64,000 bases of DNA, from positions 2,970 to 66,969 of the forward strand of contig JACPKQ010000010.1 in assembly GCA_016186995.1 (NCBI GenBank), read 5' to 3'. Of this stretch, positions 1,716 through 60,468 are shown piece after piece. The position numbers and the translations under genes are program-made. The notes below the pieces were generated by a model that saw nothing but the letters and a program-made list of their open reading frames with translations, ran no database searches and had not been told where the DNA came from. The number at the start of each line of letters is the position of its first letter. Position 1 is the stretch's first letter. The stretch comes from Deltaproteobacteria bacterium (GTDB lineage: Bacteria > Bdellovibrionota > JACOXK01).

Positions 1716-3092
1716 TCAGAAAAAAAGCTCGAGAGCCTTTTCGATATTAGAAACCCCCACGAGTTCAATACCCTTGATAGATTTTAGCTTAGAAAGGTTT
1801 TTTTGAGGAAGAACACATTTTTTAAACCCTAGTTTTTTGGCCTCGCCCACCCGTACATCAACGCCTCGAACAGCCCTGAGCTCTCCAGAAAGCCCCACCT
1901 CACCAATAGCTAAAACATCGTGTGGTAAAGATACATTTTTAAAACTACTCATCACAACTAAAAGTGTTCCTAAATCAGAAGCGGTTTCTTGAATTTTAAT
2001 ACCACCCGCAACATTCACATAAACATCATGCCCAGCTAAAATAATGCCTGAAGATTTTTCTAAAACAGCCAATAAAAGAGAAACTCTTTGTGGATCAAGC
2101 CCTAACGTTGTACGTCTTGGGGCTGCAAAACTAGTTTGCGAAACAAGCGCTTGAAGCTCCACCAAAATGGGTCGCGTTCCTTCCAAAGAAGAAACAACAA
2201 TAGAGCCAGGGTTTTTTTCTTCACTTCTTTCAGATAAAAAGAAACTAGAAGGGTTATTAATTTCCACAAGTCCCTTTTCTTGCATTTCAAAAACTCCAAT
2301 TTCATGGGTGGATCCAAACCTATTTTTAATGGATCTTAAAATTCGAAATGAAAGTGTTGGATCAGAATCAAAATAAAGAACCGTATCAACCATGTGTTCT
2401 AAAACACGAGGTCCTGCAATAGAGCCTTCTTTTGTAACATGCCCCACAATAAAAGTTGCAATATTATTTTTCTTAGCCAAATACATAAGTCGCGCTGCAC
2501 AGTGCCTAACTTGGCTTACGGTACCTGGCGCTGATTCAAGTTCTTGAGAAAAAAGTGTTTGAATAGAATCAATAACAAGAATATGGGGTTTTAATTTCTC
2601 ACAATGAGACATTACTTTTTCAAGCCCGGTTTCAGAAAGAACAAAAAGGTTTTTTTGTGAAATCCCTAAGCGCTCTGCCCTCATTTTGACTTGTAATAAA
2701 GACTCTTCAGCAGAAACGTACAAAACATTTAGTTTTTGCTTTGTGGTATTTCCCACTACTTGTAAAAGAAGGGTTGATTTACCAATACCCGGATCTCCAC
2801 CTACAAGCGTTAAAGAACCTTGTACAATTCCCCCACCCAAAACTCGATCGAGCTCTGCAATGCCGGTTGTCATTCGGGTTTCTTCCTCACAATTGATTTG
2901 ATCTAATGTAATAGGCTTATCTTGAGAGAATTCTAGATTCTGATGTTTCTTGGGAGCTTCAATAATATCTTCATAAAAAGTGTTCCACTCATTACAAGAT
3001 GGACACTTTCCCATCCACTTTTGAGTATTATAACCACAACCCGAGCAACAATATTGAGTGTTCTTTTTCATTAAAACCATCCTACCAGCCAA
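1716..3092 (-). CDS. radA: DNA repair protein RadA/Sms
   Basis: C4 zinc finger CSGCGYNTQKWMGKCPSCNEWNTF, Walker A GGDPGIGKSTLLLQ, the KNRFG motif and a Lon-protease-like C-terminal domain. Confidence 0.95.
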   Translation of the reverse strand: MAGRMVLMKKNTQYCCSGCGYNTQKWMGKCPSCNEWNTFYEDIIEAPKKHQNLEFSQDKPITLDQINCEEETRMTTGIAELDRVLGGGIVQGSLTLVGGDPGIGKSTLLLQVVGNTTKQKLNVLYVSAEESLLQVKMRAERLGISQKNLFVLSETGLEKVMSHCEKLKPHILVIDSIQTLFSQELESAPGTVSQVRHCAARLMYLAKKNNIATFIVGHVTKEGSIAGPRVLEHMVDTVLYFDSDPTLSFRILRSIKNRFGSTHEIGVFEMQEKGLVEINNPSSFFLSERSEEKNPGSIVVSSLEGTRPILVELQALVSQTSFAAPRRTTLGLDPQRVSLLLAVLEKSSGIILAGHDVYVNVAGGIKIQETASDLGTLLVVMSSFKNVSLPHDVLAIGEVGLSGELRAVRGVDVRVGEAKKLGFKKCVLPQKNLSKLKSIKGIELVGVSNIEKALELFF

Positions 3093-3123
3093 AGTTGTAT
3101 TTTCAATGTTATATGCTAATAAA

Positions 3124-3753
3124 ATGTGCGTGCTTCAGGTTTCTGAAATTTATTACAGTATTCAAGGAGAATCTTCATTTCGAGGAGAGCCTTGTATTTT
3201 TATTCGCCTTACAGGGTGCGATCTTCGCTGCAGCTGGTGTGATACAGAATATTCTTTTTACGGTGGTAAAAAAATGAATATTTCTAAAATTTTGAATGAA
3301 GTTTCCAGATTTCCTTGTAAACTTGTTGAAATTACAGGTGGAGAACCCCTTTTACAAAAAGAGACTCCAAATCTTTCTCAAAGCCTTTTAAATGAAGGAT
3401 ATACAGTACTTTTAGAAACAGGGGGGCATAAAGATATTCAAAATATTCCTAAAGAAGTAATTACTGTTATGGATATTAAAACCCCTAGTAGTGGAGAAGC
3501 AGAAAAAAATAATTGGGACAATTTAAAATATCTAAAGCCACACGATGAAATTAAATTTGTGATTCAAGACAGAAACGATTTTGAGTGGGCAAAAAAAACT
3601 GTCCAAGAAAAATTAAAAAAAATAGAAAACCTCATTCATTTTTCTCCTGTGTTCAAAAAAATGAACCCCCACACACTTTCAAAATGGATTTTAAACGAAA
3701 ATCTTCCTGTTAAGTTTGGAACTCAACTACATAAAGAATTAGGACTGCCCTAA
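3124..3753 (+). CDS. queE: 7-carboxy-7-deazaguanine synthase QueE, radical SAM
   Basis: IQGESSFRGEPCIFIRLTGCDLRCSWCDT is the QueE N-terminus and Cys cluster. ITGGEPLLQ is also present. The start was chosen at the ATG at 3124 (MCVLQVSEIY) so the gene does not overlap divergent radA. Starts at 3058 or 3106 are possible alternatives. Confidence 0.8.
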   Translation: MCVLQVSEIYYSIQGESSFRGEPCIFIRLTGCDLRCSWCDTEYSFYGGKKMNISKILNEVSRFPCKLVEITGGEPLLQKETPNLSQSLLNEGYTVLLETGGHKDIQNIPKEVITVMDIKTPSSGEAEKNNWDNLKYLKPHDEIKFVIQDRNDFEWAKKTVQEKLKKIENLIHFSPVFKKMNPHTLSKWILNENLPVKFGTQLHKELGLP

Positions 3754-3802
3754 ATTAAGATAATTGACGCTTTAACTTGTACCATGCTACACAAGAATAT
3801 CT

Positions 3803-4792
3803 ATGAAGTTAAGAGCTTTTGTCACAGGCGGGCACGGTTTCGTAGGAAGTCATCTTGTTGAACGGCTTCTTAAAGAAAACTTTGATGTCACTTGTCTTAT
3901 AAAACCATCAAGCAACTTAAAATGGATTAATACCCTTCCTTTAAAATATTTTTATGGTGATTTAAGAGACTCTGAATCGTTAAAAAAAATATCACAAGAT
4001 TTTGATTATGTTTTTCATGTAGCTGGACTTATCCAAGCAAAGTCAGAAGAAGAGTTTTTTTCTGTGAATGAAAAAGGAACACTCCATTTAATAAACGCCT
4101 GTAAATCTACACAAAAAAATTTAAAAAGATTTATTCTTATAAGCTCTATTGCAGCTTCTGGCCCTGCTGCCGCTTTAAAACCTAGAGGTGAAGAAGATGT
4201 AGAAAACCCTGTAAGTACCTATGGCAAAAGTAAACTTGCTGGGGAAAAGGCTTTAAAAGAAAATGCGGGCACAATTGCCTACACCATTCTTAGGCCACCT
4301 GCTATCTATGGCCCACGTGATCGTGGTATTTTTTTCTTTTTTGAAGCAATCAAAAAATTAAAAGGGCTTCCTATTTTTAAACCTAAAAATAGATATTACA
4401 GCCTCATCCATGTTCATGATTTAGTAGATGCCATTTATAAATCTGCTATTTCCGAGAATGCAGCAAATCAAACTTTTAATATTGTGAATGAAAAACACTA
4501 TCCACTTGAAGAAATCGTTCAAAAAATTTCGTTTTCTTTAAAAACAAAACCTCGCGTGTATTATATTCCACGCCCATTTGTTTACGGTGCCTCTTTTATT
4601 TCTGATATTATTACAAAATTAACAAAAAAAGCTTTTCATTTTAACTCCATGAAAATGCCAGATCTAGAAGCGCAGTACTGGATTTTTTCTGCTGAAAAAG
4701 CAAAAAAAGAATTGGGCTGGTCAAATAACATTCCACTTGAAAAAGGGCTTGCGGAAACGACCCACTGGTATCAAAAATTAGGCTGGCTTTAA
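3803..4792 (+). CDS. NAD(P)-dependent epimerase/dehydratase (extended SDR) family protein
   Basis: Rossmann motif VTGGHGFVGSHLVERLL. Length is 329 aa. Substrate is unknown. Confidence 0.75.
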   Translation: MKLRAFVTGGHGFVGSHLVERLLKENFDVTCLIKPSSNLKWINTLPLKYFYGDLRDSESLKKISQDFDYVFHVAGLIQAKSEEEFFSVNEKGTLHLINACKSTQKNLKRFILISSIAASGPAAALKPRGEEDVENPVSTYGKSKLAGEKALKENAGTIAYTILRPPAIYGPRDRGIFFFFEAIKKLKGLPIFKPKNRYYSLIHVHDLVDAIYKSAISENAANQTFNIVNEKHYPLEEIVQKISFSLKTKPRVYYIPRPFVYGASFISDIITKLTKKAFHFNSMKMPDLEAQYWIFSAEKAKKELGWSNNIPLEKGLAETTHWYQKLGWL

Positions 4793-4802
4793 AATCTATC
4801 TA

Positions 4803-7484
<2,682 letters not shown>

Positions 7485-37752: not shown

Positions 37753-37960
37753 AAAAATGAGAATAGTAAGTCTATCCTTTTTTGTAAAGCCTCGGCTAAA
37801 TGTATATTCTGCTCCTATTTCCAAAACCCGTAGATTCTATGGGATTTCAAAAACCTTTACCTTGAGGCATTGCCTTGGGTGGTTACGCTATAAAAAGACT
37901 ACTTACACGAGCAAATCTTGCTACAAATCCTTCCCAAGTTTCTAGTTGGAATGTGTACTT

Positions 37961-37987
37961 GTCATTCCAGCGAAGGCTGGAATCCAG
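37961..37987 (+). repeat. REP-like palindromic element copy 1: GTCATTCCAGCGAAGGCTGGAATCCAG
   Basis: 8-bp stem ATTCCAGC/GCTGGAAT with GAAG loop. Identical to the copy at 57961-57987. Confidence 0.85.
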
Positions 37988-38171
37988 AACACAGATACTA
38001 AGATGAAAGTCACATATGTTATTCCTGTACAGGTGGGAAGCCACAGGCGCTAAGTCTGATAGTTAAACGTACTTTATGAGTTGATAAATCTAAATTTAAA
38101 AACTCAACAAATTAAAACTTGTTTTTGTTTAAATGATTTGAGTAAATGTGCAAAAGCACATTGGACAAAAA

Positions 38172-38894
38172 ATGGAACTATATTCGATTCTTACGATAAT
38201 TTTTATTTTTTCTATTATTCAATCAGTGATGGGAGTAGGTCTTCTTGTATTTGGTACCCCAACGCTATTATTGTGTGGATTGTCATTCCACGAAACCTTA
38301 GGAATTGTACTTCCACCATCGATTATTATTAGCTTAATGCAGGTTTGTGAAGCTAAAGTTCCTTCAAAGGACTATTTTAAGTCAGAATTTAATAAATTTT
38401 GCCTCCCTTTTGTATTAGTGGGAATGGCTATTGCATTGACATTGGCACAATCAGTCGATTTTAAATATTTTGTGGGAATCATGCTCATTATCAGCGGAAG
38501 TATAAGGCTTTTTAAACAATTTGAGGCAATCTTAATTAAGGTAATCAAGAAAAACAGAAAACTATATCAAGTGCTAATGGGATTAATTCATGGGTTAACA
38601 AATATGGGGGGCGGATTGCTTGTTCTTTTTTCTTCTTCAATGCATCATAATAAATTGGACATACGATCAGGCGTTGCTTATGGATATTTATTTATGGGGA
38701 CACTTCAATATTTAACTCTCCTTATCTATGATATATCTTTTCTGAAATTTAATATTCTATTTTATATAATAACTGCTACTTTGACCTATGGTGTTTTGGG
38801 AAAACGGTTATTTTATAGAACACATGAAAGTATTTTTCAAAAAATGATTACATCAATAATTTTTCTTTATGGCATAATACTGTTTGTTAAATGA
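38172..38894 (+). CDS. TSUP (TauE/SafE, DUF81) family membrane transporter-like protein
   Basis: Polytopic membrane protein with GVGLLVFGTPTLL and NMGGGLLV glycine-rich motifs. The ORF is open from 38148. The Met at 38172 was chosen as the start. Confidence 0.65.
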   Translation: MELYSILTIIFIFSIIQSVMGVGLLVFGTPTLLLCGLSFHETLGIVLPPSIIISLMQVCEAKVPSKDYFKSEFNKFCLPFVLVGMAIALTLAQSVDFKYFVGIMLIISGSIRLFKQFEAILIKVIKKNRKLYQVLMGLIHGLTNMGGGLLVLFSSSMHHNKLDIRSGVAYGYLFMGTLQYLTLLIYDISFLKFNILFYIITATLTYGVLGKRLFYRTHESIFQKMITSIIFLYGIILFVK

Positions 38895-38995
38895 AAGATA
38901 AATATTAAACGGTGAGTATTACAACATGACCTCGACGTTCTGGGTTCGCTACCTCCGCGGGCGCGATGGTGCACACTTCAATCTAATAAGTGTAC

Positions 38996-39022
38996 CTGGA
39001 TCCCAGCCTTCGCTGGGATGAC
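38996..39022 (-). repeat. REP-like palindromic element copy 3, inverted orientation, with a compensatory base-pair change
   Basis: Reverse complement reads GTCATCCCAGCGAAGGCTGGGATCCAG. Compared with copies 1 and 2, a T to C change in the left arm is matched by an A to G change in the right arm, converting a T-A pair to C-G. Confidence 0.85.
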
Positions 39023-39057
39023 ATGGAATAGATAACAGCATGATTTAGAGCCTGATC

Positions 39058-54143: not shown

Positions 54144-57100
54144 ATGAAAAGAATCGTTAGCCTTTTTTTAGTGATTCTTATTTTATCTTTTTCTAGTTTT
54201 GTTTATTTAACAAAACAGCCTTTTTTCCAGCAGTATTTGAAAAGACTTGTTTATGAATATGCCGAAAAAGAGTTTAAAAGAAAGATAGAATTTAAAACCC
54301 TTTCCATAGGGTTTTTGGGCCCTACCATTTATTCTGATGAGGTTTCTGTTTCTAAAAAAAACGAGAGTTTGTTTTTAAAAAGTATAAAGGCGCGAGTGAG
54401 TATTTTAGCCCTTTTAAAGGGGCAATTTAAAATTTCTTCTATTTATGGATATCAAGGAAAATTTCAATCTGTATTAGAGAATAACAAAGGTCAAGGAAAA
54501 CCCCCAGATATTTTCGGTAGTTTTTTAATTCCAAAATTTGAATTTGAAAAAATAGATTTTGAAATAAAATCTCAAAATAGTGATGAAATTTTTATTTCAA
54601 ACGCTTCTATCGAAGGAAATCAAAAATCTGAAGTTGTTTTCCTCAAATTAAATTTTCCCAAAATAAATTTTAAGTATAAAAATCTAGAAAGAACTCATCT
54701 CTCCCTCAATGTGAGGGGAGATGTTTCCCCAAAACGGATTTATTTAAAGAATTTTTTGTTAAAAGAGAATAATAACAAACTGAACTTAAGTGGATATTAT
54801 CATTTTAATAAGAAACAAAAGCTTGATATTCAGTTTGATTCAAATTTCGATGTTAAAAGTCTTCACGATATTCTACCCCAAGTTAAAATCTTGAGTGGGC
54901 ATGGAAGATCTGTGGGAAGTCTTAAGGGGATATTAGATGCCCCTGTTCTTCAGTTTTCATCGCAGTTTGAAAGTATTTTTGTAGGCCCCCAAGAACTTAA
55001 AGAAGCTCAATTTTCTTTTTTGTTAAAGGATAAAGTAATTCAAATTACAAATTTAGAATCCTATAAAACAGTTCGGGGGGGTGTAGAAATAAAACTGAGC
55101 GATCCTTTAAATGTCAGGGGAAGCCTTCACCTTTCCCAAACCCCCCTAGAAAATATTTATTATCTTAAGGAATTAGGTATTTTAGGTAAGGCAACCGGTC
55201 CTGTTAAATTTGTGATTGATGGAAATCAAAAATACCCTGCTTTTTTAGAGAGTGATCTTTTGGTGGAAGGTTTTCAAAGCCCAGTGGGGCAGGTTGTTGA
55301 TATTCAAAACTTTCAACTCAGTGCCAAGTATTCTATTGGTGGAGAAGGGCTGTTAGTAGAAAGCGGAAAGATAAACCGTGGTAAAACTGTATGGAAGATC
55401 AAAAAATCTCAAGTTGGTTTTGGGGCGCGCCCACTTCATTTTGAAATTACCTCGGAAAATTATAGATGGGCAGATTTCCCCCTTTCTCCTATTAAAGAAA
55501 GTTTTGATGCCCAGGGTCATGTGCGCGTTTTATTTGAAGGAAAAACCAAAGATCTAAAAATAGAAAGTAGTTTTGATCTTAATAATATTAAGTTTTTAGG
55601 ACTTTCCTGTGAGGGACTTCAAAGCAAGATTTCTTTTAATAAGTCTATTCTTACAATTCTTGAAGCAAAAGCATTTCAAGAAGATTCTTTTTTAAGCCTT
55701 AATGGGCAATATGATTTTATAGAAAAAGAATTTAAAAATACAAAGATTCATTCAAACAAAGTTTCTGTAAAAGATTTTATCCAGGCGGGTGTAGCTATTC
55801 CTTTTTCACTAGAGGGGCTTTTTGAAGTTGATCTTAATGTTCAAGGGTCTCTTACAAGAAAAAATATATTTTTGGAAGGAGAAATTAAAGGTAGAAACAC
55901 AAGAATTTTAAAGGAAAGTTTTGAGAAGGTGTCTATTTCTTTTTCTCAAAAAAATGGGAAAACTTTTTTAAAGAAATCTCAGTTTTCAAAAGGCGGAGGT
56001 GTTTTAAATATAAGTGGTGTTATTTTTGAAAACAATGAGTGTTTGTTAGATTTTAAAACAGAAAACTTTGTTTCTCAGTCTTTCGATTTTTTATCTCAGT
56101 ATCCTTTTTTCATTTCTGCCCGCGTTGATTTTTTGGGAAGCTTAAGAGGAAACATTTTTAATCCCAAAGGAAAGGCAAAACTTCATTTTTCAAAATCAAA
56201 TCTTAATGGAGAGGCTCTTAAAAACTCAACTTACGAAATGAGTTTAGAGAATAAAAGTCTCAATGTAAAAGGAGAAGTTTTTGAAGGAGAGGCCTCTTTA
56301 ACATCTCAAATAAAACTTGATGCCCCCTATTTTTATAAGATACATTTACAAGGGAAAAACTTCAATTTTAAACCCTTTTACGGGCTTATCAGGGGTTTTG
56401 TAAGTGAAGGAGTGGGAATTATTGACGGAAGTATTTTAGCAGAGGGATCTTTGGAATCCCCATTGGTAAATACTTTAGAAGTTAAAATCAATAAATTTAA
56501 AATCAACCTCCCCGGATATTTTTTAGAATCTAAAACCCCTTTTCAAGTTTCTTATAAAAACAACGAGTTAGAGGTGGGTAAGGTTTATTTTTTTGGAACG
56601 GAAACAGAGTTTGTTTTTTCTGGCAAGAAAGATAAAAATGGAACGCTTGATTTTGACGGCAAAGGAGCCCTAAACATTGCCTTTCTCCCCCTCTTTGTAA
56701 AAGAAGTAGAAAGGGGAAGTGGACTTTTAAATGTTTCTTTTTCTCTTAAAGGATCTGCAGAAAACCCGCTTCTCTTGGGGTATGTGAGAACAGAAAATAG
56801 TTCTATAAGGTCAAGAACACTGAAACAAGGCATCAGTAATTTAAATTTAGATATAAAACTTCATAACCAAGAAATTATTTTTGAAAAAGCTATCTTTGAT
56901 CTGCCGAGAGGTAAGGCAAAGCTGGGTGGCAATGTTCTTCTTTCTAAAATAAGGGAACCAGAATTTAACATTTCTCTAGAATTAGAAAAAGGTCGGATTT
57001 CTTTTTTTGAAGATCTTTTTTCAACAATGAGTGGAACTTTATTTTTAGAAGGAAAATCGCCTTTTCTTATAAGAGGAGACCTAGAAGTTTCAAAAATAGA

Positions 57101-57950
57101 ATATGAAAGATATTTGGATTGGAAAAGCAATATTATACCACTTACAAAAAAAGGAGAAATTAAAGTTTCAGGGGAAAATAAAGAACCCACGTTTAATTTT
57201 GATTTAAAAATAAAAAGTATTAGTGATCTTGAAGTTGAAAATAACCTTTTCCAACTTCAAGGAAGTGGTGTTTTTGAAATTAAGGGAAATAATTTAAACC
57301 CCGTTATCTTGGGGCATTTTGATACACAGAAAGGAAAAATCTTTTTTAAAGATCATACGTTTCAACTTGGGGAAAGCCAGCTTATTTTAAAAGACAAGAC
57401 AAAAATAAACCCGTTTTTCTCATTTACTCTTTCGGGTGTGATAAGGGATTATCGCATCACTATTATTGGTCAGGGAGATTTAGTGAAATATAATATTCAA
57501 CTTCAGTCAGATCCACCCTTGGCCCAAACAGATATTGTTTCTCTTCTTACACTTGGGGTTTTAACCGCCGAAATTCAGGGTGAAGAAGCATTAGGTACAA
57601 CCTCTTTTGAAGCTGCGACGCTTATTTTAAGTCAGTTTCAGGAAAAAATAGCAGTGGTTGCTAGAAAGACACTGGGGGTTCAGTTTAGACTTGCTTCTTC
57701 TTATTCAGATACAAAACATGCTGTTCGTCCGAGGTTGTTTCTTTCGAAAGATCTTTCCGATCGTTTAGAATTGTCATTTTCATCAACGTTAGATAGAGAG
57801 GGTATTTTTGAAGACAAACTTTTTAACTTAGAATGGCGTTTAAATAGAAGGCTTTCTCTTTTAGGGGTGTGGGAAGATGAAGGAAGTCAGGAAACAAATC
57901 AAGAATCTATTTTTGGATTAGATGTTAAATATAAATATGAATTTGAATAA
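54144..57950 (+). CDS. tamB: TamB-like translocation and assembly module protein (AsmA-like/DUF490)
   Basis: 1268 aa. N-terminal signal anchor. Long beta-rich body. C-terminal DUF490-like segment DPPLAQTDIVSLLTLGVLTAE. Directly upstream of bamA, overlapping it. Confidence 0.7.
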   Translation: MKRIVSLFLVILILSFSSFVYLTKQPFFQQYLKRLVYEYAEKEFKRKIEFKTLSIGFLGPTIYSDEVSVSKKNESLFLKSIKARVSILALLKGQFKISSIYGYQGKFQSVLENNKGQGKPPDIFGSFLIPKFEFEKIDFEIKSQNSDEIFISNASIEGNQKSEVVFLKLNFPKINFKYKNLERTHLSLNVRGDVSPKRIYLKNFLLKENNNKLNLSGYYHFNKKQKLDIQFDSNFDVKSLHDILPQVKILSGHGRSVGSLKGILDAPVLQFSSQFESIFVGPQELKEAQFSFLLKDKVIQITNLESYKTVRGGVEIKLSDPLNVRGSLHLSQTPLENIYYLKELGILGKATGPVKFVIDGNQKYPAFLESDLLVEGFQSPVGQVVDIQNFQLSAKYSIGGEGLLVESGKINRGKTVWKIKKSQVGFGARPLHFEITSENYRWADFPLSPIKESFDAQGHVRVLFEGKTKDLKIESSFDLNNIKFLGLSCEGLQSKISFNKSILTILEAKAFQEDSFLSLNGQYDFIEKEFKNTKIHSNKVSVKDFIQAGVAIPFSLEGLFEVDLNVQGSLTRKNIFLEGEIKGRNTRILKESFEKVSISFSQKNGKTFLKKSQFSKGGGVLNISGVIFENNECLLDFKTENFVSQSFDFLSQYPFFISARVDFLGSLRGNIFNPKGKAKLHFSKSNLNGEALKNSTYEMSLENKSLNVKGEVFEGEASLTSQIKLDAPYFYKIHLQGKNFNFKPFYGLIRGFVSEGVGIIDGSILAEGSLESPLVNTLEVKINKFKINLPGYFLESKTPFQVSYKNNELEVGKVYFFGTETEFVFSGKKDKNGTLDFDGKGALNIAFLPLFVKEVERGSGLLNVSFSLKGSAENPLLLGYVRTENSSIRSRTLKQGISNLNLDIKLHNQEIIFEKAIFDLPRGKAKLGGNVLLSKIREPEFNISLELEKGRISFFEDLFSTMSGTLFLEGKSPFLIRGDLEVSKIEYERYLDWKSNIIPLTKKGEIKVSGENKEPTFNFDLKIKSISDLEVENNLFQLQGSGVFEIKGNNLNPVILGHFDTQKGKIFFKDHTFQLGESQLILKDKTKINPFFSFTLSGVIRDYRITIIGQGDLVKYNIQLQSDPPLAQTDIVSLLTLGVLTAEIQGEEALGTTSFEAATLILSQFQEKIAVVARKTLGVQFRLASSYSDTKHAVRPRLFLSKDLSDRLELSFSSTLDREGIFEDKLFNLEWRLNRRLSLLGVWEDEGSQETNQESIFGLDVKYKYEFE

Positions 57951-60468
57951 AAAAAACAATGTCATTCCAGCGAAGGCTGGAATCCAGTTTTTAAAAATTT
58001 TTATCTTTTTTATTTCTTTGCAGGTTTTTTCTGAGCCACAAGAACTTGTCAAAATAAATAAAATTAACTTTGAAGGGCTTCATGAATTTTCTGAAGTTAT
58101 TACCCTCAAAAAAATAAACTTGAGTGAGTATTCTTATGTTGAAAGAGAAGAGATTGAAAAATATGGTAATAAAATTAAAGAGCTTTATAAAAGAGAGGGT
58201 TTCTTAAAAGCAGTAGTAATCCCTCTTCTTAAAGAAGAGGGGAAAAATGAATTTAATCTTATTTTTAATATTCAAGAAAAGAACCGCAGTATTGTTCAAA
58301 GTATTTTTGTTGAAACAAATAATAAAAAAGAATTAGAAAGCCTTCTTTCTCTTGTTCAAGTAAAAAAAGGCGATTTTTTTATCTACTTTGAGTTAGAAAA
58401 AAATCTAGACATTTTTAAAAATGCACTTTACGAGAAGGGTTATGAAGAAATTGAGGATTTAAGTTTTGGGTATATTCAATCTGATAAAGATCCTTATGTT
58501 GATGTTAAATTTATTGTTAAAACAGGCCCTAAGTATATTTATCATTTTGAAGATAATGAGACTTTTAAAAACAAAGAAATTTTAAATTTAAAAAAAGAGC
58601 AAAATTGGACGCCTGAAGATTTTGCTGACAAAATTGTCGAGTTTTACAAAAAGTCAGGGTTTCATTTTAGCAAAGTCTATTTTTCTCTTAAAGAAGATAT
58701 ATCTCAAAAAGAAAAAAATCTGTTCTATAAAATTGAAGAAGGTCCTCTTGTTACAATTGAAGAGGTTTTTTTTCACGGGGCCATTTTTAGAAACTCGCTC
58801 TTTTACAAAGAGTATTTATTTGAAAAATCTAAGGATTCTCTATCTGTAAAAGCCTTTTATAGAAAATCATTTGAATCTGGATTGCCTGTTGTTATCGAAT
58901 ATTTAGGAAACCAAGGATTTTTAAAGGCTCGTATCGATCGTACCCAGTATGATTTTTCTGGAGACAATAAAAAAGTTAAAATTCATGTTTATCTCTATGA
59001 AGGCCATCAAGTTAAAATCTCTAAAATACAGATTCAAGGTATTAAAAAACGTCCCTTAAGTGAAATTATTGATGTTTTGGGTGTAAAAGAAGGAGATGCA
59101 TTTAATTTATCTTTTTTGGAAAGGTCTTTAACAAGGCTTAAAAGTTATTATCGTGAATTGGGGTTTTACTACTTTTCTTTGACAAGTGAAGAAAAAATAA
59201 TTTTTGCAACCCCAACAAATATCATTCTTGATTTACATTTTAGAGAAGGTCCTCTTGTTACAGTTCGCGAGATCGAAGTAAAAAACAACCACAGAACTAA
59301 ATCAAAAGTTATTAGAAGAGAACTCACCTTTAAAAAAGAAGATATTTTGAGATCTTCTTCTCTTTTTGAATCAGAAAATAAACTTTTACGCTTGGGGCTT
59401 TTTCAATTTGTAAATATTTTTGTTGAAAATGAAGGGACTCAAGACGCATCTAAAAATATTGTTGTTGAGGTTCAAGAAAGAAAATCTGGACTTTTTGAAT
59501 TTGGCGGTGGAATTAAAACAGAGGAAGGTTTTCAGGCTTTTTCAGGCATTTTTTATAAAAACTTAGGTGGGTGGAACAGAACCCTTTCTTTCCACGGAGA
59601 TTTTAATAGAAAAATTGAGAACCCACAGTTTATTGAAAGAGAAATCAATTTTGGAGCTCAAGAACCTTATCTTTTTGGAGTTCCCTTTATTATGAGATTG
59701 AATGCCCTTAATAAGAAAAAAGATAAAAGAGCTTACGATGTGCATACTTGGGAGGGTATTGTTAGTTTTGAATCTAAAGTGTGGGATACTTTTCGAATGC
59801 TTTTTGAATACCATTTTTCTTTTAGAGATATTTTTAATACACTTAATCCTGCTGATGAAGAAAAAAAATTACTTGGAGTTATAAAACCCGCATTTTACTT
59901 GGACTATAGAAATAACGCTCTTAACCCCTCTAGGGGCACTTTCCATTCTTTTGGGATAGAGTATGCAAGCCCTCTTCTTGGATCAGATGACAAAAATCAT
60001 TTTTATAAATTACTTGCTTCAACAAACTGGTATCTTCCCTTTGATCAAGAAGAAAATGTTGTTGTTGCTTTAGCTTTAAGGGGTGGTTTTGCCCAAAGTC
60101 TTTTAACGGGTTCGGGTATTCCTGCTGACCAAAGATTTTATTTAGGAGGGAGATCCACTATTAGAGGTTTTGAAGAAGATGAGCTGGGTGTTATTAGTAC
60201 GACAAAAGAAATTACACAAACCTATTTTTTAAATTATAAAACTGAATTAAGATTTCCTCTATTTTGGAAAATAGGGGGAGCGATCTTTGTTGATGGGGGT
60301 AATGTTGCTTTTGGAGGACTTCGAGCGTTTTCTTCAAGAGAGGCTGCTGGTCTTGGAATTCGATATTTATCGCCTGTTGGACCTCTTTCTTTTGATGCTG
60401 GGTATAAATTAGATCGACAGCCCGGTGAATCAGCCTATCAAATCCATTTTTCAATTGGTGTTTTTTAA
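57937..60468 (+). CDS. bamA: outer membrane protein assembly factor BamA (Omp85)
   Basis: POTRA repeats. C-terminal beta-barrel ending HFSIGVF with a terminal aromatic residue. The start ATG at 57937 overlaps the last 14 nt of tamB, or alternatively 57922. The N-region of the signal peptide is encoded by the REP-like element. Confidence 0.9.
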   Translation: MNLNKKNNVIPAKAGIQFLKIFIFFISLQVFSEPQELVKINKINFEGLHEFSEVITLKKINLSEYSYVEREEIEKYGNKIKELYKREGFLKAVVIPLLKEEGKNEFNLIFNIQEKNRSIVQSIFVETNNKKELESLLSLVQVKKGDFFIYFELEKNLDIFKNALYEKGYEEIEDLSFGYIQSDKDPYVDVKFIVKTGPKYIYHFEDNETFKNKEILNLKKEQNWTPEDFADKIVEFYKKSGFHFSKVYFSLKEDISQKEKNLFYKIEEGPLVTIEEVFFHGAIFRNSLFYKEYLFEKSKDSLSVKAFYRKSFESGLPVVIEYLGNQGFLKARIDRTQYDFSGDNKKVKIHVYLYEGHQVKISKIQIQGIKKRPLSEIIDVLGVKEGDAFNLSFLERSLTRLKSYYRELGFYYFSLTSEEKIIFATPTNIILDLHFREGPLVTVREIEVKNNHRTKSKVIRRELTFKKEDILRSSSLFESENKLLRLGLFQFVNIFVENEGTQDASKNIVVEVQERKSGLFEFGGGIKTEEGFQAFSGIFYKNLGGWNRTLSFHGDFNRKIENPQFIEREINFGAQEPYLFGVPFIMRLNALNKKKDKRAYDVHTWEGIVSFESKVWDTFRMLFEYHFSFRDIFNTLNPADEEKKLLGVIKPAFYLDYRNNALNPSRGTFHSFGIEYASPLLGSDDKNHFYKLLASTNWYLPFDQEENVVVALALRGGFAQSLLTGSGIPADQRFYLGGRSTIRGFEEDELGVISTTKEITQTYFLNYKTELRFPLFWKIGGAIFVDGGNVAFGGLRAFSSREAAGLGIRYLSPVGPLSFDAGYKLDRQPGESAYQIHFSIGVF
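57961..57987 (+). repeat. REP-like palindromic element copy 2, located inside the bamA 5' coding region
   Basis: GTCATTCCAGCGAAGGCTGGAATCCAG, identical to copy 1. It translates in the bamA frame as VIPAKAGIQ. Confidence 0.85.

Follow-up and report, generated by a model that had tools for sequence, protein, structure and literature searches.

A CGTC-1 REP/Ssn-related motif lies in frame in the predicted signal peptide of a BamA-like protein at an overlapping tamB-bamA junction

Inspection of a 64-kb window (the whole stretch of DNA analysed here, 64,000 nucleotides of contig JACPKQ010000010.1 from the Deltaproteobacteria bacterium assembly GCA_016186995.1) revealed a short palindromic repeat within the predicted signal-peptide coding region of a BamA-like gene, at the point where this gene overlaps tamB. 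A first-pass annotation of the window had described a dispersed palindrome resembling the repetitive extragenic palindromic (REP) elements, lying in frame in the n-region of the BamA signal peptide and read as VIPAKAGIQ, and the sequence, its translation and the deposited protein MBI2608575.1 all bear this out. Judged by its sequence, the element is a copy of a known dispersed hairpin repeat, the CGTC-1 REP, alias the NTS-like Ssn-related motif (SRM). The explanation that we consider probable is that the bamA copy is a recent in-frame CGTC-1/SRM insertion, tolerated because it sits in the n-region of a signal peptide that is cleaved off.

The 28-mer TGTCATTCCAGCGAAGGCTGGAATCCAG was read at positions 57960-57987 (+), within the Omp85/POTRA (BamA-like) open reading frame (ORF). 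A second plus-strand copy, identical at 28/28 positions, lies 20 kb away at 37960-37987, and a minus-strand copy at 38996-39023 carries a compensatory change of one stem pair (T>C/A>G; ATCCCAGC...GCTGGGAT) that keeps the stem paired. The number of such 28-mer matches expected by chance, from dinucleotide shuffles, was 0.00. The window as a whole contains three intact copies and one decayed copy, with no close head-to-head dimer among them (Table 1). Comparison of the flanks revealed no common target sequence and no target-site duplication among the three intact copies. The start-to-start distance between the two identical 28-mers is exactly 20,000 nt; this is probably a coincidence, since NCBI protein MBI2608575.1, deposited independently, also contains the bamA copy.

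CGTC-1 REPs, as defined by Di Nocera, De Gregorio and Rocco (2013, BMC Genomics 14:522; PMC3733652), have an unpaired CGTC tag (TGTC in many repeats, with CCTC also accepted), an 8-bp stem in which AT comes first, a loop of 4 nt and a tail of CCA. The bamA copy has the tag TGTC at 57960-57963, as do the copies at 37960 and 39023(-), followed by perfectly pairing arms (ATTCCAGC and GCTGGAAT) around the loop GAAG and by the tail CCAG at 57984-57987; most of the copies found across phyla end in CCA or CC. The published SRM search pattern, HGTCWYN(0-2)YYVSBRHN(0-5)WNVSBRGN(0-2)RNCYNB (Chenal et al. 2025, Nat Commun 16:2388; PMC11893778), picked out the three intact copies and nothing else in the window, whereas 100 dinucleotide shuffles gave 0.05 matches on average. 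Membership of the family is thus shown by the anatomy of the element and by the published pattern.

A scan of one genome per species found the 20-base core ATYCCAGCGAAGGCTGGRAT in at least 120 genome stretches (numbered with L below) from many phyla. The stretches listed include Sphingomonadales, Xanthomonadales, Betaproteobacteria, Dehalococcoidia and Saccharibacteria, and the matches listed further include Parcubacteria, Cloacimonadota, KSB1, Bacteroidota, Zixibacteria and others. In most of the listed copies the core is flanked, in register, by unpaired bases, (C/T)GTC upstream and CC(A) downstream. In Neisseria, about half of the dRS3 repeats belong to a longer oriented motif, NTS, CGTCATTCCCGCGMAVGCGGGAATCYRG, and NTS-like SRMs are spread over many phyla, where they are associated with ssnA, a 94-aa single-domain GIY-YIG gene (cd10448); SsnA binds the motif only as single-stranded DNA and on one strand only, and cuts just upstream of it (PMC11893778). 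With Ssn-like sequences used as probes only, GIY-YIG genes were found beside or between motif copies in L020, L028, L033 and L101, and in L033, a metagenome-assembled genome (MAG) of Cloacimonadota, the order is motif, gene, motif. On sequence comparison these four loci show again, in phyla distant from Neisseria, the SRM-ssnA association already published.

Many copies are preceded, 20-27 nt upstream, by one or two partial 'GTCATYCC...' heads, which have the appearance of tandem copies cut short or of slippage products from the element's 5' half. The 25-mer GTCATYCCAGCGAAGGCTGGRATCC occurs in three predicted viral contigs (IMG/VR; four stretches, L121-L124), and one of these contigs, of 27.8 kb, has three copies. 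A literature search on the encoded peptides (VIPAKAGIQ, WIPAFAGMT and others) returned no papers.

Table 1. Positions of the repeat copies, the genes at the tamB-bamA junction and the related features in other genome stretches
Feature	Sequence	Coordinates	Strand	Details
TamB-family gene	window	54144..57950	+	stop TAA 57948-57950
BamA-like Omp85/POTRA gene	window	57937..60468	+	NCBI start; 843 aa; alternative in-frame starts ATG 57922, TTG 57943
Predicted signal-peptide coding region of bamA	window	57937..58032	+	32 aa; n-region MNLNKKNN + VIPAKAGIQ + FLK; h-region IFIFFISL; c-region QVFS; inferred cleavage between VFS and EPQ
SRM/CGTC-1 REP copy in bamA	window	57960..57987	+	tag TGTC 57960-57963; stem ATTCCAGC 57964-57971; loop GAAG 57972-57975; stem GCTGGAAT 57976-57983; tail CCAG 57984-57987
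Codons of the bamA copy	window	57961-57987	+	VIPAKAGIQ
Identical SRM copy	window	37960..37987	+	intergenic; flanked by divergent SurA-like (-) and tauE-like (+) genes
Decayed SRM-like copy	window	38017..38044	+	TGTTATTCCTGTACAGGTGGGAAGCCAC; head-to-tail with the 37960 copy; no match to the SRM pattern
SRM copy	window	38996..39023	-	stem ATCCCAGC/GCTGGGAT; between convergent gene ends
Ssn-like GIY-YIG gene adjoining motif	L033	3692-4208
Ssn-like GIY-YIG gene adjoining motif	L020	4392-4756
Ssn-like GIY-YIG gene adjoining motif	L028	7365-7696
Ssn-like GIY-YIG gene adjoining motif	L101	5323-5589
Partial-head example	L019	1-45
Partial-head example	L033	3665-3711
Partial-head example	L053	1454-1500
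Partial-head example	L057	154-200
Partial-head example	L088	4569-4615
Partial-head example	L043	899-945

Pfam analysis of the ORF that carries the repeat (57922..60468, +) revealed Omp85 (PF01103, 3e-39) and POTRA (PF07244, 4.5e-37) domains, and that of the preceding ORF (54144..57950, +) a TamB domain (PF04357, 3.6e-34). The best solved-structure matches of the Omp85/POTRA ORF in the PDB were BamA chains (E 2e-33), compared with 2e-15 for TamA. The deposited protein MBI2608575.1 ('MAG: BamA/TamA family outer membrane protein [Deltaproteobacteria bacterium]', 843 aa, on a contig of 105,244 nt) starts at 57937 and includes VIPAKAGIQ; the element therefore belongs to the public assembly. From this ATG the bamA gene overlaps tamB by 14 nt, the figure given in the first-pass annotation together with the position of the tamB stop, and from ATG 57922 the overlap is 29 nt. 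The tamB-bamA gene order itself is a known arrangement outside Proteobacteria (PMC4494059).

Translation across the junction reads MLNINMNLNKKNNVIPAKAGIQFLKIFIFFISLQVFS up to the predicted cleavage site and EPQ... beyond it. The features of a signal peptide, judged by eye, are the basic residues KK...K, the hydrophobic run IFIFFISL and a V-F-S before E, and the repeat ends three codons (FLK) ahead of the hydrophobic run. BLASTP aligned IFFISLQVFSEPQELVKINKINFEGL with the region of E. coli BamA that spans the final part of its signal peptide and the first part of POTRA1; in this alignment residues 23-89 (IFFISLQVFS EPQELVKINKINFEGL...) pair with E. coli BamA 11-72 (LLFSSATVYG AEGFVVKDIHFEGL...).

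It had been proposed in the first-pass annotation that an alignment of BamA N-termini would reveal whether the VIPAKAGIQ segment is an insertion. When the N-terminus was aligned by MAFFT with those of the nearest database homologues and E. coli BamA, NNVIPAKAGIQF fell opposite a 12-column gap in all four other sequences, after the basic residues and ahead of the h-region; since signal peptides cannot be aligned strictly, the comparison is illustrative only. No VIPAKAGIQ-type segment was present in the BamA homologues compared. The GC content of the segment is 52% (14/27 bases), against 34.6% for the window, and deletion of either GTC...CAG or TGTC...CCA (27 nt each) yields a textbook signal peptide, MNLNKKN(N/K)FLKIFIFFISLQVFS. 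Because no empty site was found among relatives or metagenomes, it is from this composition and from identity with the repeat that we infer a recent, frame-preserving insertion of 27 nt.

The proposed course of events is that, in this AT-rich MAG, one SRM copy landed in the BamA signal peptide as a 27-nt frame-preserving insertion, with the basic MNLNKKNN on its N-terminal side and the hydrophobic core FLKIFIFFISLQVFS on the other. Several properties would have favoured its survival. The element is open in five of its six reading frames, and the frame used here adds one Lys and no acidic residue, so that the resulting uncharged-to-basic VIPAKAGIQ would be compatible with a signal-peptide n-region; such a region should also tolerate extra length, and its removal by signal peptidase would leave mature BamA unchanged. 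The element is most likely a tolerated passenger, and the bamA copy would then be neutral. Its spread within this genome may have involved an Ssn-type or other activity that processes single-stranded DNA (ssDNA), present or past. Ssn-driven spread does not appear to be established even in the literature: CGTC REPs have no known dedicated transposase (Di Nocera et al., PMC3733652), and the NTS-ssnA-NTS arrangement has been likened to an insertion sequence, with no further mechanism claimed (Chenal et al., PMC11893778).

Several observations weigh against a tolerated insertion. The nearest BamA homologue in the databases searched is 27-30% identical, with no close relative among them, and no match to the junction came from metagenomes scanned with a gap of 0-30 nt allowed, which would cover filled and empty alleles alike. 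The n-region, assigned by eye, is unusually long for a predicted signal peptide, at 20 residues. Just three to four copies were observed within the 64-kb window, and no Ssn/GIY-YIG gene was found there by tblastn (the same Ssn-like queries, nothing below E=1). Finally, the hairpin stands 13 nt past the tamB stop and is followed by a T-rich run, which leaves room for a regulatory side-effect.

The RNA of the element folds into a self-contained 8-bp hairpin of -12.2 kcal/mol (-7.7 as DNA). That such a palindrome could modulate access of the ribosome to bamA had been suggested in the first-pass annotation, along with folding of the mRNA around the ribosome-binding site, and the fold does not favour the suggestion. 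Counted from ATG 57937 the stem starts at +27, and from ATG 57922 at +42, whereas an initiating ribosome reaches roughly +15 to +19. The energy needed to open the region from -18 to +15 was 4.2 kcal/mol with the element and 5.0 kcal/mol without it for ATG 57937, and 6.6 and 6.9 kcal/mol, respectively, for ATG 57922. With the stem beyond the reach of the ribosome and the opening energies essentially unchanged, no occlusion of the bamA start by the hairpin is predicted, and a restriction of ribosome access is unsupported.

The position of the hairpin relative to tamB raises a different matter. The repeat begins 9 nt, and its stem 13 nt, past the tamB stop, and the element may affect tamB termination or tamB-bamA coupling. 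A regulatory hairpin at this junction, acting by stalling of ribosomes on the tamB stop, by protection of the tamB 3' end or, together with the T-rich run behind it, by attenuation of transcription, could set the TamB:BamA ratio, and this we regard as unlikely, although it is the best placed of the alternatives. E. coli REPs reduce translation of the upstream gene only if the distance to its stop is <16 nt (Liang et al. 2015, as cited in PMC12306157), a range into which the stem falls; the compensatory T>C/A>G change between copies preserves the stem; and a consensus scan flagged the hairpin plus CCAGTTTTTA as terminator-like on the plus strand. The T-run, however, begins 4 nt after the stem and simply codes for the Phe, Leu and Ile residues of the signal peptide. 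Efficient termination at this point would abolish expression of the BamA homologue, since promoter-like matches in the region are no commoner than in shuffles, and bamA must be read through here. Ribosomes translating bamA would, moreover, melt the hairpin repeatedly, and the regional fold is unremarkable (z-score -0.78). The same element occurs across phyla, and within the window it stands in unrelated contexts, one a divergent promoter region and the other a convergent 3' region; its sequence is therefore explained by family membership rather than by a local function.

Still more doubtful is a positive role, in which the hairpin would tune or uncouple tamB-bamA translation, through stalling at the tamB stop or partial termination, or would place an Ssn-cleavable ssDNA site on the bamA coding strand. 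Either, if true, would make this the first CGTC/SRM element shown to have a function within a coding region; in the second case, a nuclease would police recombination, transformation or transcription-associated ssDNA at the bamA locus.

Di Nocera et al. warn that 'intragenic' REPs at N-termini are often annotation errors (PMC3733652), and the position of the bamA start was therefore checked. Were the start mis-called, the element would be intergenic, in the 5' untranslated region of bamA, and BamA would initiate downstream from a non-canonical codon. The bamA frame is closed upstream by an in-frame TAG at 57919, and three start-type codons follow, ATG 57922, ATG 57937 and TTG 57943, every one of them upstream of the repeat. 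The first-pass annotation was right that all usable starts lie there; its list of two had missed TTG 57943, as well as TTG 58018 beyond the repeat, which leaves the conclusion unchanged. It had also claimed that no ATG, GTG or TTG separates the repeat from the hydrophobic core, and there is indeed none in frame in 57988-58017. The first in-frame start-type codon after the repeat is TTG 58018, within the hydrophobic core, and initiation there would give MQVFSEPQ..., an outer-membrane protein without a signal peptide. The only rarer codons available are ATT 57997, ATC 58003 and ATT 58012, from which no basic n-region would remain, and the h-region, three codons past the repeat, aligns with the E. 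coli BamA signal peptide in the comparison described above. In favour of a downstream start, none of the three upstream candidates has a good Shine-Dalgarno sequence; the same holds, however, for many of the window's genes, and re-initiation of bamA by coupling would fit its overlap with tamB. A mis-called start is thus very improbable.

Least credible of all is an assembly artefact, in which the de Bruijn graph would have been wrongly joined at the shared 28-mer, linking two loci that do not belong together: the MAG was assembled from short reads, the motif stands at contig ends in several loci and so breaks assemblies, and the identical copies have their exact 20,000-nt spacing, but the two sides fit both in frame and in function (the end of tamB, ATG and basic n-region on one, and the h-region, cleavage site and POTRA1 on the other), the operon arrangement is a known one, and a random join would be in frame only one third of the time and would rarely create a complete signal peptide.

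The first-pass annotation had compared the insertion with the Rickettsia palindromic elements (RPEs), otherwise its main precedent for repeats in frame within ORFs. The comparison is apt: the intragenic CGTC repeats of R. conorii are equated with RPE-4 and RPE-6 by Di Nocera et al., whose Additional file 3 lists, for this species, CGTC-1 copies read as 'VIPAKAGI' in RC0483 (NADH dehydrogenase subunit C) and RC0657 (phosphomannomutase) (PMC3733652). The implied novelty beyond Rickettsia does not hold, as the same file lists 'VIPAKAGI' at residues 33-40 of Cag_0178, a membrane protein of Chlorobium chlorochromatii, and 'SIPAKAGIQ...' in a DNA polymerase I family protein of Micavibrio. In-frame copies with this very peptide are thus already catalogued in several phyla, and the element itself is not new. 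New here are the lineage of the host and the landing site, which is a signal peptide encoded where tamB and bamA overlap; the term 'signal peptide' is not mentioned in the main text of PMC3733652, and the sole 'signal' in its supplements is in the row for FtsY.

Two further in-frame cases came from our own scan. An SRM-like copy at 2891-2923 of L001 (ORF 1794-4325, +) lies in the editing domain of a leucyl-tRNA synthetase, with Pfam domains on both sides, and two copies at 4233-4319 of L022 (ORF 3597-5804, -) lie in an ADP-forming acyl-CoA synthetase-like protein, in the linker before the ATP-grasp domain and likewise between Pfam domains. A census placed 63 of 160 copies, from 120 loci, inside ORFs of >=200 aa; this was rejected as a rate, because most of the loci are of 60-69% GC, where spurious long ORFs abound, and only the two Pfam-verified proteins were kept.

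Elsewhere in the window, at 37825-39057, a tauE/safE-like gene (38148..38894, +; PF01925) is bracketed by inverted SRM copies (37960-37987, + and 38996-39023, -), together with the decayed copy at 38017-38044. It is the sole plus-strand gene amid minus-strand SurA/PPIase-like genes and mfd. Horizontal transfer of this cassette could not be argued from composition, as its GC content is not anomalous. Directly before the minus-strand SRM copy, at 38920-38995, is a GC-rich stretch, cctcgacgttctgggttcgctacctccgcgggcgcgatggtgcac, with no tRNA or Rfam match. Rfam at gathering thresholds gave no matches in the whole window; when E-value thresholds were used instead for the region of the copies (37.7-39.2 kb), a chance snoRNA match was all it gave. 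A tRNA-derived att site was ruled out as an identity for the element, there being no tRNA or tmRNA gene in the window.

The case is mainly one of annotation hygiene and a clean teaching example, and it opens no new class of element or mechanism. It suggests that a pan-bacterial hairpin repeat is tolerable in frame in a central outer-membrane gene when it lies inside a discarded signal peptide, and that VIPAKAGIQ-like peptides in protein databases flag these repeats, and not homology. It also adds an AT-rich lineage, itself poorly sampled, to the range of the CGTC-1/SRM family. The junction itself (tamB stop, 13 nt, hairpin, bamA signal peptide) is a compact natural construct for testing the effects of such repeats on termination and coupling.

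Among known systems, the Rickettsia RPEs are likewise in-frame palindromic repeats in functional genes, in a host other than that of the window. Classical RPE-1 is 100-150 bp long and unrelated in sequence to the element described here. With the E. coli GTAG REPs, as far as the work of Liang et al. (2015) is cited in the source above, the element shares the geometry of a short hairpin within 15 nt of an upstream stop; it is no member of the GTAG REP/REPIN group, since its tag is TGTC and not GTAG, and CGTC REPs are without an associated RAYT or transposase (PMC3733652). The Neisseria dRS3/NTS repeats and SRMs share the layout of NTS with the window element, and the motif-gene-motif layout around the tauE-like gene resembles the NTS-gene-NTS arrangement. 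They differ in that stem position 6 is C/G in NTS and A/T here (ATTCCAGC against ATTCCCGC), in that no ssnA homologue was found in the 64-kb window, and in that few NTS copies are intragenic (2% in N. meningitidis; PMC11893778), unlike the copy in bamA. Although head-to-head dimers predominate in the described families, whereas the window copies are singletons or a head-to-tail pair, and although the published survey did not cover the AT-rich, deep-branching 'Deltaproteobacteria' MAG that is the host here, the CGTC-1 REPs have the same tag, the same 8-bp AT-first stem, 4-nt loop and CCA tail, and they occur across phyla with intragenic in-frame copies that include VIPAKAGI, as in the bamA copy (PMC3733652).

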